A stretch of DNA of 64,000 nucleotides from Chiloscyllium plagiosum (Eukaryota): NCBI RefSeq assembly GCF_004010195.1, contig NC_057753.1, positions 12,514,415 through 12,578,414 on the forward strand. The letters run 5' to 3'. The notes under the pieces are model-generated. The model was not told the DNA's origin, ran no database searches, and was given only the letters and a program-made list of their open reading frames with translations. Shown piece by piece: positions 11,741 through 54,502 of the stretch. Both the position numbers and the translations under genes were made by a program. Every line of letters starts with the position of its first letter. Position 1 is the stretch's first letter.

Positions 11741-11744
11741 CATT

Positions 11745-20484: not shown

Positions 20485-20521
20485 ATTTATACCTTGTGAG
20501 AATCTCCAGAGAAATAATTAA
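20485..20521 (-). promoter_or_regulatory. Conserved promoter block: homeodomain + O/E(EBF)-like site and TATA box
   Basis: TTAATTATTTCTCTGGAGATT (20521-20501) then TATAAAT (20491-20485); same block and spacing upstream of all three GPCRs. Confidence 0.7.
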
Positions 20522-21309
20522 GTTCTGACATGCGCCTTACTTACACTTCAGTGAACGAACAGATTATCTCAGCTGTTTTGCATCATCAACGTGAATGATT
20601 CTCTTATATTTGGAGGTGAACAGCTGGCTGCCTTCCCCGTTTTCACAAAATATGCCTTGGCGACTCCATCAAGTACAATCGAAGGTAGTAGATACTGAGC
20701 TCATGTCCTTTGATGTAAAATAAAATGACCCTCTCTGCCCAATTATTTTGTGCTCTTCGGAGTCAGATTATTGTATGTATTTTGTTCATTGGGAAGGAGT
20801 TTAGCTGAGATTGCTTTCATGTTATGCAAGTGTTTGAACAGAACATCCCCAGCAAGAGTTGCTGAAAAGTAATCTCCAGATACTAGAATTTCACGAGCAT
20901 GAATCTTTGAAAATTAATCTGCAGATACAGCAGGCAATGAGAAACACAAATTGAATTTTCGCATTTACTGCAAAAGGAATGGAATATAAAAGTGCTAAAG
21001 TGTTGCTACAACTATACGAAAGCCTTCTTGAGACGTCAGCTGGGGTAATTCGTAAAATTGTTATCTCTTTAAGTGAAAAGTTATGGCATATTGGAGGCAG
21101 TTCTGCGGAGATTCACTGGATTGATTCCAGACATTCTAGTTGATATTATGGAAAGGGAAGTCTTCTGAAGTTTAAATATAATGAAAGGTAACTCCACATG
21201 CGTGGAAGTTTACAGTTCCAAATTCCAGTCCACAAACACTATAGCAAATTCCAGTCCACAAACACTTCAATTAAGAAGGTCAACGGGATCAGATATATTG
21301 GAATTTACG

Positions 21310-21660
21310 GACAGGCGATGACTTAGTGATATTACCATTAAACTGTTAATTCAGAGATCCAGGCAATTTTCATTGGACCAAGGTCCGAATCCCATTGCGA
21401 CAGTTGTTATAAGTTGAATTCAATTAAAAAAATCTGGAATTAGGAGAATAATGATGACTATGAACACATTGTTGGTTGTCAGAAGAAAAACCTGCTGCAC
21501 AAATGCCCCTTACAGAAGGAACGACCATTCTTACCTGGGCTGTCCAAATGTGATTCCAGAACTAAAGCAATGTGCTTGACTCTTTGCTACTCCTCTGAGC
21601 AATTAGTGATGAGCATTAAGTGCTAGTCTAGCCATAGATTCTCACATTCTGTGAATTAAT
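21310..21660 (+). mobile_element. Old SINE (Deu/SacSINE-like)
   Basis: Decayed tRNA-like head with B-box-like GGTCCGAATCCC; body similar to 1045-1285. Confidence 0.45.
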
Positions 21661-21674
21661 ATCAGTATCAATAT

Positions 21675-21675
21675 C

Positions 21676-21735
<60 letters not shown>

Positions 21736-21738
21736 TAT
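21675..21738 (+). repeat. (AAT)n microsatellite
   Basis: Seen directly. Confidence 0.97.
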
Positions 21739-22029
21739 AACGATGCAAAAACACGAACACCTGGAAGTTCCCTTCCTAGCTCTGCCCTGACTTGGAAGAA
21801 CATTGTCGTTCCCTCAGCGTCGCTCGATTAAAGTCCTGCAGTTCAAGTCTTAGGAGCTTTGTGGGTCTGCCAGTCACTGAGGGACTGCGGCAGTTCAAGA
21901 ATGCAGCTGGATTCGATAAAACTACGTTCCTCCTCAAGGAATGGCGACAAAAATTATCGCAATCCTTCAGGAGTTGCCTCAGAAATGCATTGTACAATTC
22001 AATGCGGGCAACTCTTATGATCTAATGAA

Positions 22030-22700
22030 GAGTAAATTGAATTCAATTCGAATCTTTATGAGGTGATGCACTTGGGAGGACAAACAGGCAAAAGAATAAT
22101 GATATCCTGTGAAGGACAGAGCATCAGCACGAGCTTGGTGTGCATTTTCATGAGTTCAGTAAGGTAGAAGCACTGAGAGAAAAAGAGGTTTAGATAATAT
22201 TAGAATACGTACCTTTATAAACCAAGGCGTCTAGCATTGAAACTGCAGATAATATTGGTTATGCCGCACAAAAACCATTTGCATGCTTTTATTGAATGCA
22301 CATTATAGGAGGAGTGCGACTGCACTGGAGAAGGTGCAGAAGAGATTAATCAGGCTGTTGCTTTTGCCGGAGAGTTTCAGTTATGATGAGAGTTTGGATA
22401 GTCTGGTGCTGTTTTCTTTGGAGCAGAGAGCATTGAAAATAGTCCTGACTGAAATGACTAAAATGATGAGAGGCATCGATTGGGTAGAGAGGGAGGAACG
22501 TTTTCCCTTGGTATAGAATCAGTGGTTCTGGGCATATATTCAAGGTAAAGGGCAACAGGTTTATAGGATATGTGTGGGAAAGTATCGTCACCTAGACGGT
22601 GTTGAGCAACGTCGAGTTCACTGAGTCCAAGGGTAGAGGAGGCGGAAAACTCATAATAGCTAAGAAGTATTGAGATGTGCACTTTTTTGATACAAAGGCA
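22030..22700 (+). mobile_element. Degraded CR1 3' fragment
   Basis: ALEKVQKRLIRLL...LFSLEQRALK. Confidence 0.75.
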
Positions 22701-22914
22701 TCCAAGTGCTGGAATGTGTGCGCAGAATAGTAAGGTCATTAGTTTTGAGAGGCACAATGTTCAAGAGGAGAAAAAAGAAAAAAACATTATACAGAACATA
22801 TCAATATTGTTGCTGAGGGGTGTAGTATTCAATTGTGAAGATTACAACTTATTAACGAGGGCAATGACCTGAAAAGTTTGGACGGGTGATTGATTAGAAC
22901 AGACAGCACTGCAA

Positions 22915-23190
22915 TGAGGGTGGCACGGTGCTTCAGTGGTCGGCGCTGTAGCTTGACAGTACCAGGAGGCTGGGCACGATTCTTGTCTCCGGTGACCTTC
23001 TGTTAGGTGTTTGCGTGGGATTTCTCTCACAGTCCGAAAATGCGCAGGTCAGGTGAATTGGCAATGCTAAATTGCCCCTAGTGCATTGTGCATTAGTCAG
23101 TGTGCAATGGGTCTGGGTGGGGTTCTTTTTTTGGAACGGTTGTTGGGCCAAATGGCCTCTTTCCACCCAGTAGGGAATCTACTCTAACTC
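22915..23190 (+). mobile_element. HE1-like tRNA-derived SINE
   Basis: GGCACGGTG-CTTCAGTGGT A-box head; GTCAGGTGAATTGGC body; CR1-like tail. Confidence 0.8.
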
Positions 23191-25828
23191 AAGATTTCCC
23201 ATTTATGAGAGATGTGCTTTCAACATCTAAGCCCTGGTCCCACTCAATGCAAGTATTTTGCCCATCAATATGTCCGTTCCCTTTACCATTTGTCCACGGG
23301 AACTCCACGCCACTCAGTCATAATTTCAATTAAAATTACCCTTTTGCAAAAGCGGACAGTTCACAGGTGAACAGTCCCAACTGAAAAATTCAAACCTGCG
23401 ACATTCGAGTGCAAATCTCAACGTTTATAAATTTCTAATGAAAGATTTCTGATTCACTTGAAGCCGAGAGGACATTGATTTCCCGATTTGCGGTAACGAG
23501 AATCCTTTCAATGTCTCACATTTGTGAATGTACTGAGAACTTTAGTGTCAATGTCCTAGCCTTAAAGAAATCGAAACTGCGTAAAACGGCTGTGCTCATT
23601 CAGATAGTTTACCTTTTATACTCGTCTGATTCCGGTACCCAAAGAATTTCCAAAGAGTCACACAGCTCGGGGCTGTTTTTTTTATTTTTCTTTCTTTCAA
23701 ATTCCCAGAACTGTAATGATTTGACTGGTATGTTTTAAGTATTGAAAGTTGCATATTCTGCAATTATTCTAAAAAATGTTTTATTTAATCAGTACTATAA
23801 TACAGCCTCCCTTTAACTTGCTCCCCAATATTTTCCAAACACATTGTATCATTGAGTAGGAGCTGTTGAGTGCTGATCATTTCAAATCCACAACGGCGTT
23901 ATTTACTTGTTATATTCGCATGCAGCTATTTGTCCTTGTACATCAAACACATTCGCCAAAGTGCGTATTTACATGCCTTTTGAGACACAACATTCGAATT
24001 CTCCACCTTTGGATTTTCAGTTTGACCTGCGGTTGCATGTCCATAAACCTTTGCGACAGACTAAGTTGTTCATGCTGTACTGTTTGTAAAAAACGCAGCC
24101 CTCGGCTTTATTAACGTGTACACGACGTATTAAAGCAAGAAATTTATGCAGAATCTTTATCACTCCGTGGTCATCCATAAATTGAAATCCGGATGTTCCG
24201 TTCTGAATATCTGAACTGGGACAAGTTTTGAGAATTTGAAGATCGTCAAAAAAATCCTGGCACATTACCAGAGTTGAGGGTTTTCAATTCTGTTAAGAAA
24301 CTGGCGAAGCCAGTATCATTGTCTTCATAAACAGAACGGATTAATTAGTCATTTTACGGAGGTGTTGAAATGTTTGATGAACATTTCTTTGCACAGGAGA
24401 AACAATTTAGATAGTTGTATCTCTCCCTTCTCCACCCAGTAGAGGTATGAAATGACGTGGTTAACTGACCTGGTGAACGTCGGGCCACATGTACACTCCA
24501 AGACTTCAGATAATCTGCAACCTTCTAGGTATTTCAAAGATACAGAGTCCTGGCCAAAAGATAGCTCCAGCGGCAGCTTAGCCCCTCATTGACTCCCATG
24601 GATCAGATGTGCAGCCACTTGTTCAGACCTCCAAACTCATTGTATATTTCTGTAGCCCAAACCGGCCGTCAAACCTAGGTATCGAAAGGAAAGCTTGCCA
24701 CACAGCAATCTCAAACCAAGGGAAACAAGCATTACTTTTTCTGAATTTTTCCCCTACTATAGATGTCAGCAGTTGTAAATTTCGTTTAAAGGGTATTCAA
24801 ATGATTTTGTGCCCGGAAGTATGAATCAAGCATCACCTAAAAACTGGACAAAATGGCTCGTTTCGCCAAAACTTGTATAGTAATCAGATTTTGAATACAA
24901 ACGTCGAAACTTACATAGTGCCCACTTGCCATGTAAAATTTCTCCTTCGTGTTCTTTTTGAAATTCTTTATCAAAATCTTTAACCTGTGTCTGCACTTAT
25001 TTTGCTGTCAGCTAATTGGAAGGTTCTTTTTGTTTATCAACCTAACTTAAACTGAGTATAAACTGGTTCACCTCAATCTATTCGTACGTCAACCCATGTT
25101 CTATCTCACCACTTTGCTATTAGAATTCCTCATCAGTTAAACTATTCGCGTAAGTCTCCTCTGCATCCTCTCAAGGACCATCACATCCATCAGAACGTGT
25201 AGTGTTTACTGGTTTTCGTGCAATATAATCACGCACCAATGATTACACAGCGACTTCACCTGCTCCAGTATTTTCTCAAGCGAGAGCTGATCTACTGTCT
25301 GCAGGTTTCTGCATCTTCCCATTGGAAGTTCCTGCAGAACACTCTAAATTAAAAGCAGTGAAAACATTTCAGTGTTGGACTTTTTCAACATTTAGCTGCA
25401 ATTTCGAACTTTTAGTATGTGCTTGTTATCTGTGAGAAATTGCATAATCTGGGGCTGACGAGACACATTTACTCTGCGTCTGAATCAACGTCCATCCAAT
25501 TCTCGGTTTCACAGAAGTCCACATTCCTCTTCTCCCTGTTATTGTATAACATCCTCCATTCAAGTAAGCATTGCATTTTAGCTCTGTTGCCTGTGTTACA
25601 GTTACTTCTGGCAACCGTAACAAATTAAGTTCAAACCAAGGTCAATCGCTTGACCACGTACTGCTGACTTAACAATTTTAACACCTTTCAGAATGGTTAA
25701 TGGCAAGAAATTGTTTTCACTGCACCACTATTAAATTCTGCTCTGCATGTGCCGCATGCATTCAGTTCATAATTCATAACTTGGTTTTGTGATTTTTGAG
25801 TTTTCTGTCTCTCACCCTTTTCACAGGA

Positions 25829-26640
25829 TTTCAGAAGATGAGGTGTTGAAGTTAAGAAACTGAAACCAAAATCGTATCAGGATCTGGGAGAGAATCATCA
25901 AACACATCACAACCCGAATATCACCTGATCTTGAACATGTAATGAGAAAACACTGTTCATAGTGGGGAGAAACCATACACGGCTTCTCTATGCGGATAAG
26001 GCTTCAAACATTTTCTGGCCACTCAATATATAAAAACATTCATACTCATGAGAAGCTTTGAAAATGTGAGGTCTCCTGGTAAGAATCTTTAATCAATCAA
26101 AGCTGAAAATTCATCAGTGAGTCACACTAGGGCGGGGCCTATCAAGTTGTGTCAGAACGGAGGGCGATTCACTCAGTCATCTATCCTAGGAAGAGACGAC
26201 ATTCACTTGCACAATGTTTGAGACGAGATTTATTCATTCATCAAAGTTGGTGACACATCGGCGAGTTCACACTGCTGAGAGACCTTTTACGTGCCGAATC
26301 AACGTGAGATGTTGTAAATGTCGTGAGGAAGCGATGCACCATGAATGCATTCACACTGACAGGAGACAGGTAACATGTTCTCACTGTGGGGATGTGTTTA
26401 GCTGATCATTTTACCTGACCGTAGAGATTGCATTAACACTAAGCAGAAGTCAATCAGTTGGTCTGACTGTGAGAAGGTGTTCTCCTAGTCATCGAACCTC
26501 TTAGAACACCAGCATGTTCATACTCCATCTTAAAACTTTTCCTGATCCAACTGTCAGTCATCCCATCTGCTGTGGCGCCATCACGTCCACACTGGAAAGA
26601 AGCTATTCATCTGTTTCAACTGGGGGTAAAGATTCACACA
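25829..26640 (+). pseudogene. C2H2 zinc-finger (Kruppel-type) pseudogene
   Basis: Acceptor TTTTCACAG followed by decayed linkers (HSGEKPY, HRRVHTAERPFTC, HTDRRQVTCSHCG, HTGKKLFIC) with many stops and frameshifts. Confidence 0.8.
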
Positions 26641-26641
26641 T

Positions 26642-28255
26642 AAAACATAGAACATTATAGTGCAGTACAGGCCCTTCGTCCTTCGATGTTGTGCTGACAT
26701 GTGAAACGTACCTGAAGCCCGTCTATCTTACACGATTCCATTGTCAACCATATATCTGTCCAATGAGCATGTCAAGACCGTCAAAGTGGGGGAGTGTAAT
26801 ACTGTTGCCTTCAGTGCGTTCCACGCCCCCACTACTCTCTGTGTAAAGAAATTATCACCGACATGTGTTCTAAAAATATCACCACTCAGTTTAATGTTAC
26901 ATTCTCTCGTGCTAGTCTTCAGCATCCGAGGAAAAATGGCATTCACTGTCCATCTTATATAACCCTCTGATTATCTTGTATATGTCTCAACCTTCTTCAC
27001 TCGAAAGAAAAACAGCCTCAAGTCCCTCTGCCTTTGCTAATAAGACCTTCCCTCCATACCAGGCAACATCCTGTAAATTTCAACTCAACTGTCTCCAAAA
27101 CCTCCAGATGCTTCCTTTAATGCGGTGACCAGAACTGTATGCAATACTCCAATGGCCAGTGTTTTGCACAGGTGCAGCATGACCTCGTGGCTCTGAAATT
27201 CAATCTCTCTACCAATAAAAGCTAACACATCCTGTATGCCTTCTTAGCAACCCTATCAACCTGAAGGCAACTGTCAGGGATCTATACACATGCATACCGA
27301 AATCTCTTTGCTTGTCTGCACTGCCAAGACACTAGCCAGTGCTTTTTATTACTGTTTTTTCTTCCAAACTGAATCACCTCACTCTTTTCCAAATTAAACT
27401 CCATTTGCCACTTTTCAGCCCAGCTCTGCAGTTTATCTAAGTATCTTTGTAGCCTGCAACATCTTTCACATCCTGTATGCCTTCTTAGCAACCTTATCAA
27501 CCTGAAGGCAACTGTCAGGGATCTATACACATGCATACCGAAATCTCTCTGCTTGTCTGCACTGCCAAGACACTAGCCAGTGCTTTTTATTACTGTTTTT
27601 TCTTCCAAAGTGAATCACCTCACTCTTTTCCAAATTAAACTCCATTTGCCACTTTTCAGCCCAGCTCTGCAGTTTATCTAAGTATCTTTGTAGCCTGCAA
27701 CATCTTTCAGCAATATTCACAACTCTCCCGACCATAGTGTCATCTGCAAATTTACTAACCCATCCTCTCCGCCCTCATCCAGGTCATTTATAAAAATGGC
27801 AAACAGATCCTTGCAGTACACCATTATTACCTGAACTCCAGGATGATCATTTTCTGTCAACCACCATCCTCTGTCTTCTTTTAGCTCGCCAACTTATGAT
27901 CCAAACGGCTAAATCACCCTCAATCCCACGCCCCTGCATTTTGTGCGGTAGCCTACAATGTGAAACCCTGTCAAACACTTTACTGAAATCTACATACACC
28001 ACATAAACCATTTTACCCTCATCCATCTGTTTGGTCACGACTCAAAGAAATCAATAATGATTGTGAGGCATGAACTAAATGGCGTTGTCTGTCCAGAATC
28101 AACTTATTGTTCTTGAGATGAGTATAAGTCCTATCTCTTATAACTTTTCGAATACGTTATCTTCAACCAAAGTGAGGCTCACTGGTCTATACTTTCCAGA
28201 GTTGGCTCTATCCCGTTCTTGAACAAGGGGACAACATTTGCTATCCTTCAGTCTT
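26642..28255 (-). mobile_element. CR1 LINE (RT to 3' end)
   Basis: VDFSKVFDRVSH; WAEKWQMEFN; FFTQRVVGAWN; tail at ~26645. Confidence 0.88.
27226..27707. repeat. 241-bp near-identical tandem duplication within a CR1
   Basis: 27226-27466 and 27467-27707 differ at only about three positions seen by eye. Confidence 0.92.
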
Positions 28256-28899
28256 CATTTATCACAGCTGCTGAGTCAAGATAAAGTTCACAACTAACCA
28301 GAGTGATTGAAGTTTCATATTTATCCCATCCAGGAGTGAGTTATGTTTATTGTGCTCTGTTTCTGATGACGTTATCGTACACCAACTCAAATTTGCATTA
28401 ACATTTTATTGACACGTCAAAGAAACCAGCTTTATTAAATAGAGTGCATGGTAAAACACAGTGCATGCCATTCTTCTTTCATATAATACCAGACGTTCTC
28501 TCTCAAATTTTCCCCTATTTTTAACAGGTGTGATGAGATCATGGAGCTTCTTTGTCGCTGAGATTAAGACAATCAGATCAACTGCTTCTCTTGTTTCCAT
28601 CCTTTACTCGTCCCTGGGTCAAGCTGCTTCAAAATGTGCTCGTTGCCTGAGCTCTGAACTCACATATCTTGCTAGTTTCTGTCATTTACCCTCATATTCA
28701 CATGACGTTTGTCTTGTCCGTGGGGTCAACCTTATGTTCTATTGACGTTATTCTCACGAAACAAGAGACAAGTTCATGATCATCCAATAAAAATCTTCAT
28801 GAGTTTAAACATTCCACTCAGTGTATTTAAATAAATAAGCCTTTTTGAACCATGGAGTCAGCAAATTTTGTTTGTTGATATTGACATTTTAGTCAGGTG

Positions 28900-29905
28900 T
28901 GTTCAATGCAGTGCTGGGCCCTCTACTTTTTGTCATTTACATAAATTATTTGGATGCGAGCATAAGAGGTACAGTTAGTAAGTTTGCAGATGACACCAAA
29001 ATTGGAGGTGTAGTGGATAGCAAAGAGGGTTACATCAGATTACAACAGCAACTGGACCATATGGGCTAATGGGCAGAGAAGTGGCAGATGGAGTTTAATT
29101 CAGATAAATGCGAGGTGCTGCATTTTGGGAAAGCAAATCTTAGCAGGACGTATACACTTAATGGTAAGGTCCTGGGAGTGTTGCTGAACAAAACGACCTT
29201 GTAGTGCAGGTGCATAGCTCCTTGAAAGTGGAGTCGCAGGTAGATAGGATAGTGAAGAAGGCGTTTGGTATGCTTTCCTTTATTGGTCAGAGTATTGAGT
29301 ACAGGAGTTGGGAGGTCATGTTGCGGCTGTACAGGACATTGGTTAGGCCACTGTTGGAATATTGCGTGCAATTCTGGTCTCCTTCTTATTGGAAAGATGT
29401 TGTGAAACTTGAAAGGGTTCAGGAAAGATTGACAAGGATGTTGCCAGGGTTGGTGGATCTCAGCTACAGGGAGAGGCTGAACAGGCTGGGGCTGTTTTCC
29501 CTGGAGCGTTGGACGCTGAGGGGTGACCTTATAGATGTTTACAAAATTATGCGGGGCATGGATAGGATAAATAGACAAAGTCTTTTCCCTGGGGTCGGGA
29601 GGCCTTAACTAGAGGGCATAGGTTTAGGGTGAGAAGGGAAAGATATAAAAGAGACCTAAGGGGCAACCTTTTTCACGCAGAGGGTGGTACATGTATGGAA
29701 TGAGCTACCAGAGGAAGTGGTTGAGGCTGGTACAATTGCAACATTTAAGAGGCATTTGGGTGGGTATATGAATAGGAAGGGTTTGGAGGGATATGGGCCG
29801 GGCACTGGCAGGTGGGACTAGATTGAGTTGGAATATCTGGTGGGCATGGACGAGTTGGACCGAAGGGTCTGTTTCCATGCTGTACATCTCTATGACTCTA
29901 TGACT
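28900..29905 (+). mobile_element. Young 5'-truncated CR1 LINE
   Basis: KFADDTKIGG ... LEYCVQFWSP ... RGDLIDVYKIMRG; (ATGACTCT)n tail. Confidence 0.93.
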
Positions 29906-31121
29906 CAGTGCAAGAACTTTTCAAACACTATGTAAATACAAACTTTAGAAACTTTTTGTGTTATACAGTTCACATTCTTGTCGATACTTTATTCTATTGT
30001 TGCTACACTTCCAGAAATAAAAACCTGAAATAAGCCTCTCGCTGCTCTTTACTTCCAATTTGTTTGGTTAATCCAATTTGATTTGCTGATTTTATTTTTG
30101 TTTGAAACGAATTGTCTGTTCATTATACATTAAATTCACTTGCATAATATCGTCATCCTATCTCTCTTTTCAATAACATAGTGTGTCCAGTACTCGAACA
30201 CAAGATGGAACAGCATGAGAGTCCTACAAATACTTGATGATATATGGGCTATGAAGTGAAGATTGAGTTTATTTAAAAAAAATAAATCCACCTAAGCATT
30301 GCATAAGATTGTAATGGTCTGAAGGATTACAGGAAGCCAAGAAGTGAGTTAAGCAGTCCTCAACAACGCAATGCCACATGAACTGGGTCAGTGAAAAACT
30401 GGTATTGATCTCAAAAGGCGAAGCCCGGAAATTGATGTTTCCCTCAGTGGAACATTGTAAATTGTAATACAGCACGGAGAATTTCGTCAACTTATCATTC
30501 TCAAAAAGGCAATATTTTAGCTTCTCCCCTCCATTGGGCAGCTCAGAGAGGGACATTGAAAAGTCATGAGAATCCATAGCAACCTTGCGGGTTGTCTCTT
30601 ATAAAGAAAGATCAAAATGTTCCGTTTTTTTTTTGTTTGAAACTGAGTGCAGTGAGTTGAAGTCCAGAAACAATGCACATCAAATAATCTATTTTCCTGT
30701 TTTGTTACAACCCCGAACCATATAGTAAACTCTTTCAGGCGATTTTCTGAGATCATGGAACATTTTATATTCCATGATTTCAGATCAATAAAATATATTA
30801 GATTCTTCAGTGTTTGGGGTAGGTGTGGATTAACGTTTTGGTCGGCATATAAGAGATTGGGAGGAAAGATCTGTCTCCGCGCTGTCGGAAATGATGACAC
30901 TGAATCTATGAAGCTCGATGATGCTGTCGCAGCATGAAGGTTATTTTTTCGATAATTCAGCTTTCCTTCATATTGCAAAGAGGGAAATAGGTCTTACGTT
31001 TCTTAGTACAGAAGCTGCAGCACATAGTTTGTTCGTGGGATTGAGAGGTTGAAATACTGCTGCCCATTGAGTCAGATTTGTGGGATTGAAATAACTCCGA
31101 AACACTTCACTGTTTTATTAT

Positions 31122-32023
31122 TCATTGCTGAAAACGATCAGTAAGCCTGGTAAAGGGATACACCAGCACCTTCTTCAATTCCTCACGGAACTTGTTCTGG
31201 GACACAACGTAAATAAAGAAATTGTTGCAGGAACTGAGTAACTGAAGCATGTTGGTCGTCTCTTGAAGAATATACTGCTGGTTACTGAAACCCAAGCTTG
31301 ATACGTATTCATCACCAGTAACCATTCTGTACAGGAAACGCGCAAAATATGTCGCCCAGAGGAGCAGGAAGCTGAGAGAGATTGCAAAGAGAAGAATTAT
31401 TGACCTCTTGCGATTGGCCATTTCTGTGTCTTCGCTATTTTCAGCACCCAGTAGCCTCTTACGGGCTCTGCTTGCCACTAAGATATGTCTTACATTCAAG
31501 ACATTTAACAAAAGAATGATAAGGAATGGGAGAAAAGGGGCTAAGATGCGATCAAGCCAGTAGTATGTCTGCCAGGCAGGAGACTTGTGGAAGATCGGTT
31601 TGATATCACAAAACCAGGGCACACCATCCAGAATGTACAAAGGCTGGTAGATGAAGTAGAATGGGATGTTCTTGCAGCAGCTCAGAGCATATATCACTCC
31701 GATAATCACTGAAGCACTTTTCTCAGTGCAGTACTTAGTCTTCAGACTCTGGCAGCAAATAGCTACAAAACGGTCAATGGTGAAGGCCACGGTAAGCCAA
31801 ACCGAGCAATCCCGCGTGGCATAGACGAGCGCAGCATTGAGGCAGCATGCAGGAGTTGTGGACAATACACTGAAGCTGAAGTAAATGCGGCTGATGCGGT
31901 TGAGGATGCACCCAGTGATGATGACAAGGAAATCAGCTACCGCTATGGCGACCAGGTAGTAGGTGACACATCGGGAAAGGCCGCAATGTCTTTGCGATAG
32001 TATTACAATGGCCAGCAAGTTGG
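31122..32023 (-). CDS. GPR139/GPR142-like GPCR, paralogue 2, exon 2 (spliced product 323 aa)
   Basis: CAG acceptor at 32026-32024; ANLLAIVILSQRHCGLS...AFTIDRFVAI...WFC...SSCNNFFIY; open to TGA. Confidence 0.92.
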
Positions 32024-32279
32024 CTGTGATAGATAAAAGAACAACAATGTTACCAAGGGTCTCCAAAAATGAGTTCCCACCTGATCCTCAGATTTCCTTA
32101 AACTTTTCGGTTTAATCACGTTTCCATCTTCAAGCTGTCTGCTCCACTTGGTGGTTCAATTTCCAAAGCTCAAGTAAGCATTTACCTATAAAATATGTGA
32201 ACACTTTCTTTCGACATCTTGAATTCCACTTCCTGGTCTTCAGTCAATTTCAGTGGCCAGCTATCTAATTCGAGGCAAG

Positions 32280-32940
32280 GCTCTTTACATCACGGGTGTT
32301 ACCATTACCTGGAGGCTGAACAAGACCAGGCATATAAATGAATTGGCACAACAGCAAATTAGAGACTCAGGCTCCTGCAGCACACAATTCATCTCCCGAA
32401 TCCCAAACGTCGGTCCATCATCTAGAAGGCATAAGTGCGGGACTGTAATTGAATACTAAAAGCTTGCCTGGATGTGTTCAATTCCAACAAAACTCAAGAC
32501 GTGTGCACTATCCTGGAAAAAGTAGCCCGATTGACTGGCATGATACCCTGAATTGCACACTCCATCAGATATTGATATTCATTTGCAACACCATAGACAA
32601 AAGGCACTACAGTAATTTACCAAAGATCCTCAGACAGCACCTTGTAAATACATGACCACATCCTTCAAGAAGAACAAGGGCAGTGGACAGCTGAGAATAC
32701 CACCACCTGTGCGTTCCCTTCCAGCCACTTACCATCCTGATTGGAGATATATCATTAATACTTCACTGTCACCGGGACTAAATCCTGGAACTTCCTCCCT
32801 AACTACACTGTGGATCTACCTACATCAGATGTGCTACAGCGCTTGAAGAAAGCTACTGACAGCGACGTTCTCAAGGGGAAACAAAAGTGGGCAATTAACT
32901 ACTGTTGTAGTTAACAAAGTCTGCATTCGTCAAGAGATTA
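32280..32940 (+). mobile_element. Old LINE 3' fragment (CR1/L2-type, same family as 35440-36600)
   Basis: Shares the 3' sequence (...CAGCG-TT-AAGAA-GC...TTCTCAAGG) with 36300-36600 and 33670-33840. Confidence 0.5.
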
Positions 32941-34310
32941 TCAAGTTGCTGTCCACACCTACCAACGTTCAGCCAGCGACCTTATGTTCACTGATTTGCA
33001 TTGTGCCCAGTCTACAATATCACAGTTCAGATAATCTTATTCTTCAAAATTTCGCATACATTCATAGTTCACTCACTTCCATTCCGTTCACATTACGCAG
33101 CCGCCTCTGTTGTCAGGGTGGCTGCAAGTTGAATACTAATTCTTTAATCAGCTTTTAAAGTTGATCCCTGATCTCCAGAGATCACTAAATCAGTGGCCCA
33201 CCTGCCCCGTCTTCTTTGGCCTTTTTTTAAAGTAATGTTTTAATCGTGTCTTTAGTCTTTTGCTTTGATAGTCCCTTAATTTACTTGTGATAAAATTTGG
33301 ATATTAAAACTTCCGACCTTGCACACTGGAGTAGGCTGACAAGGAAATCCAGCCAGAGATTCTCAAATAGAATTTGGTGATAAGTAATAAACGGTAGCCT
33401 TGACTGCAACAGTCAAATCCGAGTAATTATAACGACATGCAATTCTCTTCAATAGAAATGCTAGTCAAACATTTATCATCACAGTAAAAAATGTGCATCC
33501 ACTCAACTAACAAATTTCATGTCTTTTTGCAAATAATCGCTTACATCCCGTTAAAAATTGAAACCACAGCAGGGAAATTTACTTCTTTGGAACTGTTTCA
33601 TCGTGTCTATCTTTTACATTGCAGATTCGACTAAGCAGTGAATGTTTTATGCGTTGCAATTTTTTTTCACTGTCACTGGCTTGAAATCCTGAAGTATCCT
33701 CCCTACGTTCTCTATGAAACTACATACATCAGATACATTACAGCGGTTCAAGATGGTAGCTCACTGCCACCTTTTCAAGTGATAAGTAGAAGTGGACAAT
33801 TAACTGTTGGACCAGCGAACAAGACCCACATCCCACAGAGTTTTAAAAAGTTGCTGTCCTCACGTACAAAAGCAATTAAAACACTGCAATATCTATTTCC
33901 TGTTTCTATATTCAGATGGTCAAACGTTGCTGTTTTACTGCATAATGTGAGACTATTTTTCACAGAGTTCACTGCATTTCCTCAAAAGCAAAATTCTGCA
34001 AAATTTCAATAAGAGATAGAATTATGTTAAATTGACATCACACAGTGTTCAATGCATATTTCATTAATCTAATCAAAGTACGTTTTTATGAATGTACTGA
34101 AATTATTTTGAATCAAATATGTTAACTCTCCGCATTGCCAGCAATTAACTAATTAGAAGAGCATAGGTATACTCATAGAAAATTCACAGACTGAAGTCAT
34201 TTACTGAGGCCGTGCGTATTATGATAGAGGTTAATCCTGAAACGTCAGCTCCACCAATTTCAAGTAACTGCAAAAATAAGTTAGTAAGTTATTAGGAATC
34301 AATTTCATAC

Positions 34311-34380
34311 CAGGAGCACCTATTATAGCGAGAATTGGATAGCAAACAGCATAGAACAGGCCTTTCGCTGGTCCGTGCAT
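34311..34380 (-). CDS. GPR139-like paralogue 2, coding exon 1
   Basis: ATG 34380, MHGPAKGLFYAVCYPILAIIGAP + G|GTATGA; 70 nt, phase 1. Confidence 0.9.
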
Positions 34381-34439
34381 CCTATCTGAGAAGCTCAAGC
34401 TGCAGCCCTCACCTCTGTGGCATATCCAACGTGTCTCTT

Positions 34440-34476
34440 ATTTATTTGACATGACAGTCTCTAGAGGATGAATTAA
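34440..34476 (-). promoter_or_regulatory. Conserved promoter block: homeodomain + O/E-like site and TATA-like box
   Basis: TTAATTCATCCTCTAGAGACT (34476-34456) then AATAAAT (34446-34440). Confidence 0.65.
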
Positions 34477-35439
34477 ACCTCATCATGCATCTCAGTTGCA
34501 AATCAGTAAACAAACAAATTATCTCAAGTTTTAATGTCGTTCATTTTAATCATCGGGATGGCGTGTGGCTCAGTGTCATTTTGTCAGCTCACTGCTGGCT
34601 GGAAATTCCTTGCATCGAAACCCTCCTTTTAGTTTTAATGGAGTGGAGTTGCTAATATTCGACGCTGAGTGGATATTCTATCTCTAATCTAAACTTAACA
34701 TTTTCTAAGACTAGCATATTCTAAGCAATTTTGTTCTTTTGTTTGTTATATTTGTGAATGTCATTGTCAGAGATTTAAATTCTCATAAATTACTGTTGCC
34801 TCAGACTTGTCACAGATACAAAATTAATCTGTACGGCGTCACTAATACCTTACAAGAAAAGAAACGTGGGTGTCCACCCTCACATGCTAACTGTGGGAAA
34901 TGTGCAAGCGTTTCAGTTTTACTGGTCAAGTAGAAAGACAGGAAGGAGCTTCAAAAAGGCATCGCCTGTTCACCAGATATCCCATGGCACCAGGTCAACT
35001 CACTGCAAGGAAAGTTCCTGACTCACCCTGTTACGTGATGAACTAGTGCTCCTCTGTTTTGGACATGAGTTATTGGATGAGCTGAAAATGTCAAAAGCAC
35101 ACAAAACACTTTGTCTGGGGAACCCCAACATTCCACAAGATGTGGTTTGGAAACCCCTCCACTAATCGAGCTAGTTGAATCTTAGCTGTGTGTCGTGGTA
35201 AAACTAACTGGAGGGATAAAATTATACGTGTTTGTAAACTCAGAAATCTTCTCAACATTTGTCCATAACGGCACTGGCCATATCCTTATGGCAATGAAAT
35301 CCCAGCTTTAAATCGAGAATTCCCTCCATTGCGTTGTGTAACATTGTAACAGTGACAAACAGGATAGATTTCGAACAGATCAACCGATTCAAGAAGTGGC
35401 ATCAATGTAGCAAAACGGGCAACGTGGCAACACTATCCG

Positions 35440-40357: not shown

Positions 40358-40444
<87 letters not shown>

Positions 40445-40700
40445 NNNNNNNNNNNNNNNNNNNNNNNNNNNNNNNNNNNNNNNNNNNNNNNNNNNNNNNN
40501 NNNNNNNNNNNNNNNNNNNNNNNNNNNNNNNNNNNNNNNNNNNNNNNNNNNNNNNNNNNNNNNNNNNNNNNNNNNNNNNNNNNNNNNNNNNNNNNNNNNN
40601 NNNNNNNNNNNNNNNNNNNNNNNNNNNNNNNNNNNNNNNTCTATCTATCTGTCTATCTATCTGTCTATCTATTTGTCTGTATGTCTATCTATCTATCAAT
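40358..40700 (+). repeat. (TATC)n microsatellite spanning a 195-N assembly gap (40445-40639)
   Basis: Seen directly. Confidence 0.97.
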
Positions 40701-40899
40701 ATATTTATCTATCCCTCCATATGTCCATGTATCCGTGTATCCATCTATTTTTCCATCTTTTGCTTCTTTTACATATCTTTTTTGCGTGGCAGAACCCAAC
40801 AGAAAACGACGGGACAGAGGGAGGGGGAAATGTATGCTGCGAACATTCGAAATATAGCTCTGGCTGCCAGAGGACAAAGAAAGGTGCTAAGAAACCGTG

Positions 40900-45140: not shown

Positions 45141-45579
45141 AGTGGCTGTGAAATTTAATAATATGTGAAGAGTAAACAAACCGTCTACGTGATGACACAG
45201 ACATACATACATAGACAAGTGCAGAGACTTGCAGAATCAGGTTCAAAACAATCTCTGACCACGCGAGAAAAACTCAGTACAGGCATTTTGTTTTTCAAAC
45301 AAATCCGCTTTCTTCAGAATTCTCAAATCGCTGCCTGTGCTTGTTGTAAACTTCTTGTATATTTCAGGTTAGTTTATGTTATGTGCAGTTGATTTATGGT
45401 TCGGCTGAAACACAATGCAACAAAATAAATGCTGAGCTTTACTGAATAGATTGTTACACTGTGTTCATAGCGAGTTTGATGTAAAGAATGACAGATGAAA
45501 CGTTTCCAGTCCATCTCATTTGGATTTTAAATAATTTCGGTTGTGTTTGTCCTTGAAATTTAGACGAATGGGCGGAATG

Positions 45580-45970: not shown

Positions 45971-46073
45971 TTACATTGCTGTTTTAAAACAGCACAAATT
46001 GCTGGAAAGTTTATTATTTGTAGGCTTGCTTTCATCCTGCTCCCAGACCCTTCACCATTCCTCATTACAGAAG

Positions 46074-47289: not shown

Positions 47290-47910
47290 TTGTTCGCACT
47301 GCAGCACAACAACACCATGAACCCCTGTTCAATCCAGTCTCGGGCGAATGTCTGTGTGGAATTTGGCTATTCTCCCTGGGCCTACGTGGGTTTCCTCTGT
47401 GTGCTCTGGTTGCCTCCCACAGTCCAAAATGGGCAGATTAAGTGGATTGGAAATGCTAATTTGCCCATACTGTTTAGAGATATGTAAGTTATGTGGGCTG
47501 GCCATAGGAATTGCAGGATTGCGAAGCTGCAGTAGGAGACTGGGACTGGATGGGATGATCTTCAGAGTGTTTTTTTACGTTTAGATTAGATTCGCTGCAA
47601 TATGGAAACAGGCCCTTCAGCCCAACAAGCCCACACCAACCCTCCGAAGAGAAACCCACCCAGACCCATTCTCCCACCCTCTATTTACCCCCGACTAATG
47701 CACCAAATACTATAGAAAATTTAGCATGACCAATTCACCTGACGTGCACATCTTTGCATTGTGGGAGGAAACCGAAGCACCCAAAGGAAACCCACGCAGT
47801 CACGGAGAGAATGTGCAAACTCCACACAGGCAGTCGCTTGAAGAGGCAATTAAACCTGCGTCCCTGGCGCTGTGAGGCAGCAGTACTAACCACTGAGCCA
47901 TCGTGCTGCC
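47290..47910. mobile_element. Two HE1-like SINEs tail-to-tail (+ 47290-47570; - 47580-47910)
   Basis: Same SINE body in both orientations; TTAGATTAGATT tail at ~47580. Confidence 0.8.
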
Positions 47911-48239
47911 AGAGTTCAGAGTGGACTTGATTATCCCAATAGCCTGCTTCCAAACTGTAGTGATCCTATATCCTGCCACGCTGTGTTCAAATGACCATGT
48001 TTGTGGGGCCCAGTGCACAGTGATATCGCTGAGATAATGATAGAGACCCAACAATATTTAAATTAACCACTTTCTTGTCTTGATAAAAATAACATGGTCA
48101 GAGAAATCTGATGAATTTTACCCTTTACTCGAGTCAAATCTCTTTAGTAAATATGAGAAAGTAGTCTGGGAAAGTATTTAATTAGGGGAGGGAAAATTAT
48201 ACTGCAAAAAAAAACATGAGTTGTGAAGTTTCAATAGGG

Positions 48240-50330
48240 AAGAATTGTTCAATGGGAAATGCAAAACAGAAATGTTGAGGATTTTTAAGAGCAGTTGTTG
48301 TCAGTGTTGGATAACTTTGTCCTGCTGAGACAAGCAATGTTTGATAAGGTGAAGGAAACTTGGATTTCAAGCAAAGAGGCGGTTCGCGATGAAAGGAAGA
48401 AGGAAGCTTACTAAGGGTTGAGGAAAAAAGGATTTGCACAGCTTTCGAGGATGGCATGGTAGCTGGACAGATTTTAAGAATGGACTGAAGAGAGCTTGGA
48501 TGGGGCACGAAAAAGCTTGAGCAGGAAGAAGTGGGAAACCCTAAAAGCGTTCTGCACTTACCTGAGGAATAAGAGAATGACCACAGACAGGATAGGGCCG
48601 ATCGGGGATAGTGGAGGAAAGTGGTACCTGGAGTTTGAAGAGGTAGGGTAGGATCAAAATGAGCTATTTGCTTCGATATTCAATAGTGAGAGGGACCTAG
48701 TTGGTAGTGAGAACACTGTGGATAATTTTAATAGGCTTGAAGAGATTGATATTAAGAAAGTGGCTGTGCCCTAAATTCTAGGAAGCATTGAGATACATAA
48801 GTCCACAATGCCGGACCAGCTATTTCCAAGTTTACTCCGGGAAGCGAGGAATGAGATTGCTGCTCCTCTGACGATGACCTTTGCAACCTCAGTCTCCACA
48901 AGACTAGCACAAGATAATCGTTTGGAGGCGAATGTTGTTCCTCTGTTCATGAAAGGGAATAGGGAAATAATTGGGAATTATAAACCAATCAGTCTTATGT
49001 CTGTGGTAAGGAAGGCACGAGAAAGTGTTCAGAGGGAAATGATTTTTGCGCAATTGGAAAAAGGTGGTTTGTTTAAAAATAGTCAGCAAGGATTTGTGAG
49101 AGGCAGCCATGGCTCACAAATATTATTGACATCTTTGAGAATGTGATGAGGAAGTTTGATGAGACAAGCACACCACAGTGCATGTGGGTGGAATATATTT
49201 GGGTTAGCGATTTGAGAAGGGTCCCCACGGTATGCTCATTCATAATAGTCGGAGATATGGGTGCAGGGTAATTTGCTGCCTGGATATAGAATTGGCTAGC
49301 CGAAAGAAGACAACGAGTGGCAGTGGATGGGAAGTTTTCCACCTGGAGTTTGGTGACCATTGGTTTCCCACAGGCATCTGTTCCTGAGCCTGTACTCTTT
49401 GTGGGTTTTATAAATGAATTGGATGAAGAAGTGGAAGGTTGGGTTACTAAATTTGCCGATCACACATAGTTTGGTAGTTTCGTAGATTGTTTTGAGGGCT
49501 GTTGCAGGCAATAACAAGACATAAACAGGATGCAGAACTGGGCTGAAAAGTGGCAGAGGGAGTTCAATCTGGATAAATGCAGTGATATATTTTGCAATGT
49601 TGAATTTGAATACTGAATACAGGATTAAAGAAGAGATGTTGGTAGTGTGGAGGAAAAATGCGATTTTGTATACAGACACATAGATCCTTCAAAGATGTCA
49701 CACAAGTTGGTATGGTTATTAAGAAGGCATATAGTGATCTGGCTTTGATTAACAGGGGAATTGAGCTTCAGAGCCGCGAGGTTTTGATGCAGCTCGATAA
49801 AACCATGATTAGACCACAGCTGGAATATTGTGTCCAATTCTGCATGCCTCATTATAGGAAGGATGAACATATTTAGAGTAGGTGCAAAAGAGATTTGTCA
49901 GGATTCTGCCTGGATTGGAGGGCTTGTCTTATGAACAGAGTTTAGGTGAGATGGTGCTTTTCCCATTGGAGAGAAGAAGGAGGACTTGCTGGAGGTGCAC
50001 AAAGTGATGAGAGGCATTAATAGAGGTAATAGATTTTCCCCAGGCAGAAATGACTGAACGTGCTGTCATTCTGTTTTGATGATTGGAGGAAGGTATAGAA
50101 CAGACGTCATTGGTAGTTTCTTTAATCAGAGAATGGTGGAATACACTGCCAGTTGTGGTAGTAGAGTCAGAGACATTGGAGACATTTAATGACTGCTCGA
50201 CAATCACATCGACGGCAGTAAATTGAGGGGTGTGCCAATTAGTTTGACGTTAGATTAAGATAAATTTTTAGAACAACATCGTGGGCTGAAGGGCTTGTAC
50301 TGTGTCGTACTATCCTATGTTCTTTATTCG
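48240..50330 (+). mobile_element. CR1 LINE ORF2 (RT) to 3' end, decayed
   Basis: ANVVPLFMKGNREIIGNYKPISLMSVV; SQQGFVRG; RPQLEYCVQF. Confidence 0.9.
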
Positions 50331-52441
50331 AAATATCCTGGCGTTTGGTCGCAAAAGTGAATGCACTAAAAGAGAAGTTCAACAAAATATTTTGTAATAT
50401 AATGACTATTCATCGTTATGGCCTATGCTTCTTCAGTTACTAATTCTGGTGGCTCTTGGATGAGTAATTATCGGCCAATCGTTCCTTTAAAAACGCATGA
50501 ATGCATGAAACATATATTTGTGAATATAACCTAAGAATCACACATTGAACACTTCAGCTCCCATCGCTGAGCAGCATAATCTTCCGTAGTGGCAAATTAT
50601 GGAGATTGCACATGGTTTCCAATTCCGTTGTAAATAGTTCATTAAATTTTTTTTTCTAGTCTTCCTTTGCAGATCCGACGCAAGTTCCAATTATTAGGAA
50701 AAACAAATATAGTCATTTCTCTGTGCTGGGATTTGCCAGTCTCTTTCAGCTAGCAACATCTATGCACGAATAACTATTCCATGATGAACAAATGCAGGAA
50801 TCTGATGAAGAAGTTATGCTTGAAAAGTCAATCCTCCTGCTCCTTCGACGCTGCCTGACCAGCTGCACTTTTCCGGCATCCCACTCTTGACAAACATTTT
50901 TAAAAAATGACAGACATCAATACATGATGACTGACGCTGCTGATTTTAATTGCCACGGACCTCTGAACCAGTCCTCGAATAATCCATTCACTTACATTGT
51001 GCCTGGTTGTCTCTGAGAGTCTATGGATGCATCCTTGGGCATGTGTCTCCATCTCCTATTTATTTTCTGTATCACTTCCAACCATCTAACATTAATCTAT
51101 CACGTCTGTTGGTTTCTCTGTGTTTCTGTCATAGCTGTCTTCACCTCTGATGACATTTCTTTATCGTTATCTGAGTTTCAACTTCATTCCATCTTCCTGT
51201 TATGTTCTTGGTGTATCAATGCATTGAGCTTCACTTTGATTTGAGGGATCATAATTTAACAAAGATTGGCTACAGACAGAAACTTTATTCTTAAGGATGC
51301 AGAAACAATATGACAGAGCTGGATATATACATTGAATGACTACAGAGAAGTAATCATAGAGTTCTTTTCATTATTTATGCATGGGATTGCCTGCGTTGTT
51401 TGTTTCTTTTGCTTATTCATGCAGTAGAATGGCAACTGCATTACTGTCGATCTGGTGTCACGTAGAAGCTTCAACAGACCAGGGAGGACGTCAGTTTGCG
51501 TCTCTCAAGAAGTGTAGCCAACTAGATGGTTTTTCTTTCCCGGCTACTAAATATGTGGTCATCATTTATTCCCAATATTAGACTTTATTTTCTCATTTAT
51601 ATTCCACCATGGCAAGGTTAGAATCCTCATTCCTAGAACATACCTGGCCCTTTCAACAAATTATCCATTCATCATACCACGTTGTAGCCACTATGAAGGT
51701 GGAACTGATATGAATTATGTCAGGGAGCCTGACAGGTCTTTTGGAAATTACGTAAAATTGATGCGAGAAAAAAAAAAGAACCCGAGGTTCTTTATTTTGA
51801 GAGGACACTTTGTGGTGCCACATGGGTTGTTGTGTGAGGCGGAATTATTGGGATGGCTGGCGTAGCCACTTTTGAGGCACAAATTAACTCTGTAACAAGA
51901 TAAACGGCAACAAAGTGAAGAACGAGTAAAACGAAAAAGGTGAGAATCTTTAACACAAGTCAACTGTGAAACTGAGGAATTGCTTATCAAAGATTGAAGC
52001 CAATGTATGTCAAAAAGGTTGGTGCTTTGGTTTAATGATAGTGATCGGCTCAATACGTGTGAAGTAACTGAGAGCCAACTTTTCTTCTCATGCTTTCACA
52101 AAATTTCCACCGACAGTAACGCGGGGGGATCAGAAAGCCCAAGTAGGGAGAGTGAGGAATAAATAAACAAATGTCATCTGGACGAGACTAATGGAGAGTA
52201 GCCGCAGTAAGGGGATGTGGGAGGGTGAACACAGATTACAATTGCGCTTCTTTTTGAGTAATACAAAATTGCAATCGTTGTGCATTCTCTTAAGGATCGA
52301 CTACAGTCAATTATCAGAGCTGCCAATAGGCTTTCTATTCCTTTGGTACTGGCACTAACTTTCCATAAATTTCTGTATCAGGGGATAACGGGCCCAGTAT
52401 ACACTGAACTACTCTAGTGGAAAAGAAAGAGCATGAGAGAT

Positions 52442-53352
52442 TTATTCCACTCTGCGTTTAAAGAAATTGGTGAGGGTGGCGAAGGGGTACATCAAAAAGT
52501 TCATTAACTCCTTTCTAAACAAATTCTGAGATATTGCATAAATGAAGACGTTGTTGCAGGAACTGAATAACTGAAGTGTGTTGGTCGTTTCTTGGAAGAT
52601 ATACTGTGGGTCACTGAAATCTAATCCACCGAAGTAGCTCTCTGCTTTAAGCCGCATGTAGATGAAATGTCCGACAAGAGGGGCCCACAGGAGGAGGAAG
52701 CTGAGAGAGATGGCGAACAGTAGGATGATGGATCTCTTGCGGTGGGCCATCTCCGGGTCTTGTTGCTTCTCTGCACCTCGGAGCCTCCTTCGGGCTCTGT
52801 TAGCCACTAGGATCTGTCTTATGGTCAGGACGTTCAGCATCAGAATAACGAAAAATGGGAGGAAAGGGGTATAAATCTGAAAGAGCCAATCATAAGCCTG
52901 CCAAGCTGGCCAGACGTAGAAGTTGGCTTTGATGTTGCAAAACCACGATACCCCATCTAAGATGTATAAGGGTTCGTAGATAAAGTAGTATGGAATATTC
53001 TTGACGCAGCATAGAGCACATACAATTCCAATGACCAGAGACGCCGTTTTCTCTGTACAGTATCTGGTCTTCAACTTCTGGCAGCAGATGGCCACGAAAC
53101 GGTCGATGGTAAAGGCGACTGTTAGCCAGACCGAACAATCCCGCGTGGCATAGACCAGTACGACGCTGAGAGTGCACACAGGAGTGGTCGACAAGACACT
53201 TTCCCGGAAATAGATGCGGCTGATTCGATTGAGGATTACTGCGGTGATGATGACAAAGAAATCAGTCACTGCGATAGCCACCAGGTAGGAGGTGATGCAC
53301 CGGGATAGATTGCACCGTCCTCGAGATAGAATTATGATTGCCAACAAATTGG
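52442..53352 (-). CDS. GPR139/GPR142-like GPCR, paralogue 3, exon 2 (spliced product 326 aa)
   Basis: CAG acceptor at 53355-53353; ANLLAIIILSRGRCNLS...AFTIDRFVAI...WFC...SSCNNVFIY; open to TAA. Confidence 0.92.
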
Positions 53353-54324
53353 CTGTGAGAGATCAAAAGAGAAAGTTATTACTGAACTTAGTCAAAACAC
53401 TGTCTGCTGCCTTTTTCAATCTTTTATGTAACAGCTTTAAAACACCGGTTTTCCACTTTCAGTCTCTGCCTATCCTGAAACCATTGACAAGCATTGGACA
53501 TTCAATACAGCACTATATATCTCTCAATGTAAATAGTCCCAGGAATAGATATTGTTCGCTCGTTACTGAGTAAACTCCAGTAGCTACTGTCCAATTCAGG
53601 ATAAATGGAATAATGTGGTCCCGATGAACGTATTCATACCAAACCCCGGACATGCTTCAACCCATAAATGTTTCCTCACGTTGCCTTTTCACTAGTGGTG
53701 TCCCACCCATTACAAATCTCATCATTCGAATCTTCAGAAGCTCCAGAGTCTTGCTACGTCCATTCCCGCAATCATACACAACTCTTTGTAATTACAAGTT
53801 AACTTTGATTGTGCCTCCCGTGTATGCCTAAAATTGATATTTCTAACGGTGTCAGTTATAGGTTTACATAATAAAGCTCTAAACTCTGAAATTATTACCG
53901 CAGATCTTCGCTTCTATTCCCTTCTTTCAGACGTTCCTTTGATCGACCCTTTTTTGCAATATCTCATATCTCACAAAATTGCATTAATTTACTAAAGCTG
54001 TTCTAGTGTTTGCTATGGGCGGTGTTGTGGCTCGAGATCATGTGTACTTTCTAATAATTATGAAGAATGTTGTTCTGGCCAATTATTCCAAAAAAGTATC
54101 TAGAGCATTCAGGAACGTATTTTTCATTCATACTTAAGAAATTGTCAGTACTGAACGATGATATGACACAGCACAGATAGCATCCCGTCATACGCACTGA
54201 ACGTCATTTGATGTCTATTAATGTTGCATATTGGAAAAGTTCAGCTATATCCTGAATAGGAAAGGAATGCATTTCAGGAAACACAGAATAAAAAATATAC
54301 TTTTCATGTGAATCAGTGACTTAC

Positions 54325-54394
54325 CAGGGGCGCCAATACCAGCGAGAATTGAATAGGAAACGACGAAGAAGGGGGCAATGACTGGTTCGTGCAT
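54325..54394 (-). CDS. GPR139-like paralogue 3, coding exon 1
   Basis: ATG 54394, MHEPVIAPFFVVSYSILAGIGAP + G|GTAAGT; 70 nt, phase 1. Confidence 0.9.
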
Positions 54395-54465
54395 CGTCGT
54401 TCAGAAACTGCAGGAGTTGTTGTCGCTGTGGAGGTTTGCTCTGTGACACATTTAAGTGCAACCTC

Positions 54466-54502
54466 ATTCATTCGGATTGATAATCTCCAGGGGGCCAATT
54501 AA
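54466..54502 (-). promoter_or_regulatory. Conserved promoter block: homeodomain + O/E-like site
   Basis: TTAATTGGCCCCCTGGAGATT (54502-54482) then AATGAAT (54472-54466) at the TATA-equivalent position. Confidence 0.7.

Follow-up and report, generated by a model that had tools for sequence, protein, structure and literature searches.

What kind of receptor gene would a shark keep behind a promoter that resembles those of olfactory receptors? The question is raised by a 64,000-nt stretch of the Chiloscyllium plagiosum genome (contig NC_057753.1, positions 12,514,415 to 12,578,414), referred to here as the window, in which three GPR139-like receptor genes, g1, g2 and g3, each carry a 21-nt promoter block that joins a homeodomain-like TAATT to a site resembling the Olf1/EBF (O/E) site. 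A preliminary description of the window, made from its letters alone, had proposed that these genes form an unrecognised class of chemoreceptors driven by the programme of olfactory neurons. We find that the block is part of a constrained core promoter and that the genes are members of a very large family arranged in clusters, and the reading that we favour, at a probability of roughly 55%, is that of an elasmobranch chemoreceptor family expressed in olfactory neurons under EBF/homeodomain control.

Conservation of the promoter block

The three 21-mers lie where the preliminary description had placed them, all on the minus strand: at 20501..20521 in g1 (TAATT, three nucleotides, then TCTC-TG-GAGA), at 34456..34476 in g2 (the same arrangement with CCTC-TA-GAGA) and at 54482..54502 in g3 (with CCCC-TG-GAGA). 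On recounting, 14 of the 21 positions are indeed invariant among the three. The distances of 88, 76 and 88 to the ATG hold if one counts to its A, the nucleotides between block and ATG numbering 87, 75 and 87. The invariant TCA said to follow the block begins 1 nt past its end, and a TATA-like box begins 9 nt past it in each gene, again on the minus strand: TATAAAT in g1 (20485..20491), AATAAAT in g2 (34440..34446) and a degenerate AATGAAT in g3 (54466..54472). Farther on there is a YCA in g2 (A at about 34418) and a TCA in g3 (A at about 54444), which we take to be initiator-like. With respect to the O/E consensus YCCC/YCYC-NN-GGGR, the left half is YCYC and the right half departs, being GAGA in g1-g3 and never GGGA.

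When the 600 nt upstream of the three genes are aligned, invariant columns number 4-10 per 30 beyond -180, 12-15 from -180 to -61, and 5-6 from -60 to the ATG. The conserved region exceeds the block, for about 40 nt upstream of it a TGTTYGTTYAC element is found in g1 (TGTTCGTTCAC, 20551..20561, minus strand) and g2 (TGTTTGTTTAC, 34506..34516, minus strand); we presume the g1 element to be forkhead/Sox-like and use the term as a label only.

Across the 3.56 Gb covered by our genome-wide pattern counts, the strict pattern TTAATT-N3-YCYC-TR-GAGA-YT has 18 matches as compared to none for the reversed pattern that served as its control, and 15 of the 18 precede an exon 1 of the family, g1, g2 and g3 accounting for three of these. 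The bare pairing of homeodomain and O/E words is not rare, because a looser pattern that omits the TATA box gives 68 matches against 54 in the control; among ten of its extra matches that were inspected, four were family promoters and six were not. The layout TAATT-N3-core-N9-TATA is matched 143 times at up to two mismatches (26 in the control) and 49 times at up to one, as compared to 5 against 2 at up to one mismatch when the first spacer is set to 2 nt, and a pattern with a 5-nt spacer returns 320 matches against 271. Twenty-five of the 49 best matches to the triple pattern lie 0.5-5.3 kb upstream, on the same strand, of one of 130 listed exon-2 loci, and the listing includes distant subclades in which the left half is the canonical TCCC and the spacing is unchanged.

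A second sample was drawn by a coding pattern for exon 1 (319 matches, 8 in the control), and the upstream DNA of 20 of 100 listed copies was compared; this sample leans to the clade of g1-g3, because the coding pattern was built on loci found in part through the motif itself. In 17 of the 20 promoters the best match to the block stands at the homologous place, 66-96 nt before the ATG and followed by a TATA-like box, and the block occurs within three mismatches in 11 of the 20 as compared to 2 of 175 random 300-mers. Mean pairwise identity among 24 block-bearing promoters (three promoters without the block being excluded) is 0.74 for TAATT, 0.72 for the O/E core and 0.86 for the TATA-like box, against 0.36 for the 3-nt spacer, 0.42 for the 9-nt spacer, 0.46 for the 5' untranslated region, 0.36 for the start of the intron and 0.43 for fourfold sites, so that the motif is better conserved in the paralogues than neutral sites are. 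In 13 of 25 promoters an initiator-like YCA falls 29-31 nt from the start of the TATA-like box, where about 2.4 would be expected (an expectation calculated by hand). The block thus forms part of a constrained core promoter with rigid spacing. The preliminary notion of a shared composite promoter is borne out as to constrained homeodomain-like and O/E-like halves held at a fixed distance from a TATA-like box; its exact layout is confined to one clade of about 300 genes, of which it is the mark.

Two loci deserve a separate remark. In the paralogue L004 (C44:12448623-12452522), whose exon 2 contains three stops, the O/E-like core has decayed and TAATT and the TATA-like box are intact. At L063 (C8:62593841-62596861) the promoter and exon 1 are duplicated in tandem, 247 nt apart, with a non-GT donor in both copies.

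Size of the family and its largest clade

In the genome there are 2,808 matches to a pattern that covers the last part of exon 1 and its splice donor, and 2,593 to one for the third transmembrane segment (TM3) in exon 2, with no match to either in the controls. Pseudogenes, and perhaps assembly duplicates, are among the copies counted, and a cautious estimate would be more than 1,000 distinct loci. Three protein searches of the genome returned at least 130, at least 125 and at least 113 loci, in largely different sets. The copies cluster on contigs C8, C7, C37 and C43-C49 and are found on many unplaced contigs besides; on C8 (107 Mb), the matches listed are spread along most of its length. By eye, 96 of 130 and 100 of 113 of the best matches listed are free of internal stops, best matches being a selection that overstates intactness.

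The largest clade is not that of g1-g3. Among 40 exon 1 copies taken from 100 listed, all on contigs C1-C8, 33 belong to a different clade with a longer N-terminus that contains 42-nt repeats. In this largest clade (L089-L128, for instance L094, L113 and L126) a variable number of these tandem 14-amino-acid units precedes a shared start, and since each repeat contains an in-frame ATG the N-terminus may vary in length among copies. Upstream, ATTAAT-GTCAG-TCTCCATGGA is present within five mismatches in 29 of the 40, about 330-525 nt before the exon-1 donor (L089-L127), and this word, ATTAAT joined to an EBF-like site, has 1,770 matches in the genome against 4 in the control. Read on the opposite strand, the core is TCCA-TG-GAGA-CT, with the right half as in g1-g3 and the homeodomain-like site on the other side. 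A TTTGTTCA-type upstream element is common to both clades, and TTTGTTCAGTGA, related to the TGTTCGTTCAC element of g1, is conserved in the largest clade. An element of the TGTTTGTTCA type (20551-20561 and 34506-34516 in the window; L089-L148) is shared by the two clades and, in that of g1-g3, stands some 40 nt ahead of the block. A pairing of homeodomain-like and EBF-like sites thus recurs in both clades examined.

Receptor identity and ligand pocket

All three proteins match Pfam 7tm_1 at 67-84 bits (cut-off 30.5) and are accordingly class A (rhodopsin-like) G protein-coupled receptors (GPCRs); in the same search two of them gave a weak match to Srx and none a match to 7tm_4, the olfactory receptor (OR) domain. 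Human GPR139 is the only sequence match in the PDB and a weak one (E 3e-9, 40 bits), and the family has neither the single copy nor the high similarity to human GPR139 that would make its members orthologues of it. The best named homologue is 'probable GPCR 139' of Hemiscyllium ocellatum, which shares 94% identity with exon 2 of g3. Among the 120 matches listed, named homologues are all from sharks or rays; they come from many species of shark, skate and ray, and no chimaera was among the names seen. Between g2 and g3, identity is 69% for amino acids, 84% at second codon positions and 46% at fourfold sites, a pattern that indicates purifying selection.

In a quick maximum-likelihood (ML) tree of 64 proteins, a set that does not include true GPR139 or GPR142, the elasmobranch members group with an apparently single-copy clade of amphibians and sturgeon (Shimodaira-Hasegawa-like approximate likelihood-ratio test, SH-aLRT, 99). 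The sister clade comprises coelacanth, teleosts, amphibians and reptiles and has shark members of its own, and amphioxus falls outside. Relatives in fish and coelacanth carry the names GPR210A/B (PMC6504862; sources are cited throughout by PMC number), names that may correspond to clades of our tree. The apparently single-copy relatives of amphibians and sturgeon (P0220, P0277-P0296) might, through their expression, show the ancestral tissue.

The variability of the receptors was measured as entropy over 84 non-redundant proteins, with residue numbering assigned from motifs. It amounts to 2.49 bits in the pocket, 2.22 bits in the extracellular halves and 1.06 bits in the intracellular halves of the transmembrane segments, and charged residues are frequent in the pocket (R3.36, D3.37, D5.39, D5.42, R5.43). 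Such a variable, charged pocket above a conserved intracellular side would suit a range of polar ligands that share a single signalling route. For GPR139 itself, L-Trp and L-Phe are activating ligands, acting via Gq (PMC5103216). The family is what one would look for in chemoreceptors, being large, clustered, interspersed with pseudogenes and variable in the ligand pocket, and to that extent supports the chemoreceptor class proposed at the outset; its olfactory part is a matter of likelihood, taken up below.

Gene structure and surroundings in the window

The three genes share one structure, on the minus strand: a coding exon 1 of 70 nt from the ATG, and then a phase-1 GT-AG intron inside the first transmembrane segment (TM1). 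In g1, exon 1 (20344..20413) provides 23 codons and 1 nt, covering the N-terminus and the first half of TM1, and exon 2 (17369..18270) encodes the remainder of the seven-transmembrane receptor through the stop, for a full protein of 323 amino acids. The corresponding exons are 34311..34380 and 31122..32023 in g2 (323 amino acids) and 54325..54394 and 52442..53352 in g3 (326 amino acids). The introns measure 2,073, 2,287 and 972 nt in g1, g2 and g3, and all open reading frames are intact. Further family members lie about 5 kb before the window (C44:12508456-12509361, plus strand) and about 2 kb after it (C44:12580736-12581626, minus strand).

The window also contains retroelement fragments that we take, from their translated reading frames, to be CR1/LINE-like (4628-5349, 10428-13137, 19119-20063, 28909-29906 and 48594-50329), one of them inside the intron of g1. 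A 241-nt unit is tandemly duplicated at 98% identity within a LINE-like region (27226-27709), an (AAT)n array occupies 21676-21740, and an (ATCT)n microsatellite (40358-40713) surrounds an assembly gap of 195 N (40445-40639).

A model for expression and its alternatives

Based on these observations we propose the following scenario. Every gene would have its own compact proximal promoter, on which an EBF (Olf/COE) dimer would occupy the O/E-like site and a homeodomain protein of the Lhx2 or Emx2 type the adjoining TAATT. Both would sit immediately ahead of a TATA-like box and initiator, and transcription would accordingly start about 40-50 nt before the ATG. A lineage related to GPR139/142, apparently single-copy in amphibians and sturgeon, has expanded in elasmobranchs to thousands of copies; these would most likely serve as chemoreceptors for amino acids or small peptides in the water, with sparse expression among olfactory sensory neurons and conceivably one receptor per cell. 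The olfactory epithelium would be the most likely site, since such motif pairs are best known from that tissue and since the number of known receptors in sharks, some 10-50, is small for so large a nose. For comparison, cartilaginous fishes are described as having large olfactory organs and about that number of known olfactory receptors, and teleost V2R/OlfC receptors as responding to amino acids as food odours (PMC10116579). More tentatively, and with a likelihood that we place a little below even, the shark and ray olfactory repertoire may comprise far more than 1,000 GPR139-related receptors that arose from a GPCR lineage sensing amino acids, in a recruitment separate from those of ORs, TAARs, V1Rs and V2Rs, each with its own EBF/homeodomain promoter in place of shared enhancers.

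Several observations weigh against olfactory expression under EBF/homeodomain control, and the departures from the mouse composite given in the last section must be added to them. The core of the block has on average 3.1 mismatches in 8 to TCCC-NN-GGGA (in g1 it is a perfect TCTC/GAGA palindrome), and the right half is GGGA in 0 of the 24 promoters, its GAG being kept. The block is absent from three of the 20 exon-picked promoters; locus L142 keeps TAATT and the TATA-like box and has lost the core, and loci L144 and L145 are without the block. Of the 17 sampled promoters that bear the block, only 5 have an exact TAATT, which makes the homeodomain half the weaker one. In the largest clade the sites stand in another order and orientation, and their conservation (0.79-0.84, against 0.67 at fourfold sites) is modest. 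The extracellular variability of the receptors is of a kind common among divergent class A GPCRs and is no distinguishing mark of odorant receptors. In the catshark, almost every olfactory neuron is a microvillous Go/TRPC2 cell that lacks OR expression (PMC10116579), so the programme of mouse ciliated neurons need not apply there, and the 50 most abundant and specific genes of a catshark 'brain & olfactory epithelium' library include no GPCR (PMC11979771). Dilution over many genes would equally give such a GPCR-free list.

Sequencing reads over positions 16200-35000, which include g1 and g2, add little to this. Among four runs, the reads of X1 look like DNA and X6 has no matching reads. In about 2% of the single-cell run X5, for which no tissue is recorded, the reads are repeat-derived, exon bins have a depth of 0-0.15 like intergenic ones, and no splice joint appears among the joints shown over g1 and g2, which speaks neither for nor against expression.

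A large and clustered family with variable pockets points to external ligands and names no organ, and it is possible, if unlikely, that these are chemoreceptors outside the nose, in taste buds, in solitary chemosensory cells of skin or gill, or in other sensory neurons, where the EBF/homeodomain-like promoter would be put to use. In the catshark, expression of v2r and v2r-like genes extends beyond the nose, for instance to the gills, and the GPCR-free olfactory list comes from the same study (PMC11979771); set against this, it is in olfactory receptor genes that homeodomain and O/E sites are best documented as a pair (PMC12547500). We regard as improbable the idea that the family consists of immune or leukocyte receptors, for instance for microbial peptides. 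In that case EBF1, in cells of the B lineage, or some different factor would act on the O/E-like site. EBF1 does function in B cells, which would fit, but a neighbouring homeodomain site is not known as a B-cell signature. Some genes of chemoreceptor families are expressed in immune cells (OR-kappa, PMC13113109), and shark immune genes are noted for rapid evolution (cited in PMC8455134), whereas the relatives of the present family are neural or amino-acid receptors (PMC5103216).

Slightly more doubtful still is that the block is a genuine but generic core promoter, which came down from a GPR139-like ancestor active in the brain and was duplicated along with the genes, its likeness to an O/E site being partly coincidental and some other factor binding the CTCTGGAGA core. 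GPR139 is mainly a gene of the central nervous system (PMC5103216), the core departs from the canonical EBF site, and the published mouse composite pattern is so loose, with 74 matches in the window, that resemblance to it is without weight. Distant subclades nevertheless retain TCCC and the exact spacing, and receptors for endogenous ligands would rarely be expected to reach thousands of copies with variable pockets. As for the copy number, it might reflect mostly neutral amplification or assembly redundancy, with most copies silent: in the largest clade, small unplaced contigs account for 57 of the 113 best listed matches (counted by eye), the pairs L072/L076 and L075/L077 are near-identical, broken copies are common (a stop inside 34 of the 130 matches listed), and the family is interleaved with LINE-like repeats. 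This we consider very improbable, given purifying selection between g2 and g3, the open frames of most best matches, homologues named in so many sharks, skates and rays, and promoter constraint above the neutral level.

Novelty and significance

No published account of this family, of how large it is or of its promoter came up in a search that covered only a minor part of the subscription literature and did not combine 'GPR139' with 'elasmobranch' or 'skate' alone. In a look-up of terms, GPR139 was absent from the available text of PMC11979771, PMC8455134 and PMC11886862, and 'GPCR' and 'coupled receptor' from that of PMC10620051. Cartilaginous fishes have been said to show a relative paucity of GPCRs (PMC8455134). 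The genes are already in RefSeq under a generic name, a prior description may exist, and the masking of multi-copy genes as repeats may explain why they have been neglected.

We consider the size of the family, as counted from sequence matches, to be the solid and surprising result, and an olfactory role to be plausible. If expression in olfactory neurons were found, the paradox of the shark nose would be resolved, the view that sharks smell with 10-50 receptors would be overturned, and few vertebrate families of chemoreceptors would be larger; a separate origin of olfactory receptors, with a promoter grammar of its own, would then be open to study. If the genes are expressed elsewhere, a family of such size still needs a function.

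Comparison with known systems

The known olfactory families of sharks (OR, TAAR, V1R/ORA and V2R/OlfC; PMC10116579) are clustered and subject to birth-and-death turnover, as is the GPR139-like family. The latter belongs to another branch of GPCRs and exceeds the 10-50 genes reported at least 50-fold, and olfactory expression, which has been shown for V2R/OlfC (PMC10116579), would here be predicted. GPR139/GPR142 and GPR210A/B (PMC6504862) are class A receptors like those of the shark family, whose homologues bear the database name 'probable GPCR 139'.

With regard to the block itself, the obvious comparison is the Lhx2/Ebf composite of the mouse Greek Islands (Monahan 2017, PMC5608512), in which a homeodomain TAATT likewise stands directly 5' of an O/E-like palindrome, in the same order and orientation and at a fixed spacing. 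The composite characterises some 63 intergenic enhancers and is depleted from promoters (PMC5608512, PMC11643329), whereas the shark block is a proximal promoter element 9 nt from a TATA-like box. The preliminary claim that adjacent TAATT and O/E sites mark mammalian OR promoters and enhancers alike is thus right for the enhancers and fails for the promoters, from which the mouse composite is depleted (PMC5608512, PMC11643329, PMC12547500). Nor does the shark block show the stereotyped gap of 1 bp that separates the Lhx2 site from the Ebf site in the mouse; in the shark 3 nt follow TAATT. In the mouse Sfaktiria probe for electrophoretic mobility shift assays, by eye, 2 nt separate TAATT from the core (PMC5608512 supplement 27), and the authors placed their insertions between TAATT and the 10-bp EBF core (PMC5608512 supplement 27). 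The shark spacer is likely 1 nt longer than that of the mouse; a 3-nt reading of the mouse sequence fits slightly worse, and the register is somewhat ambiguous. The TCCC left half of distant subclades resembles the mouse OMP site TCCC-TG-GGGA (PMC5608512 supplement).

A fit of 18-20 out of 20 to the published 20-position composite pattern, with its '[4]' taken as a repeat count, was discarded, since a pattern degenerate enough to match the window 74 times is no test. Readings of the core as a BANP, STAT or BCL6 site, judged from consensus motifs, were likewise set aside.

Mammalian OR promoters such as those of M71, MOR23 and P3 are short and AT-rich, carry O/E, homeodomain and TBP motifs close to where transcription starts, and belong to clustered multigene families (PMC12547500). 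At the level of sequence the shark promoters share all of this, with the TBP motif near the inferred start. The sites of mouse OR promoters form no rigid composite (PMC12547500), unlike those of the shark block, and the shark genes are non-OR genes with an intron within TM1. The mouse M71 promoter, according to a review, needs both its O/E and its homeodomain sites (PMC12547500). By analogy, the ordinary OR promoter would appear to be a closer functional parallel to the shark block than the Greek Island composite.

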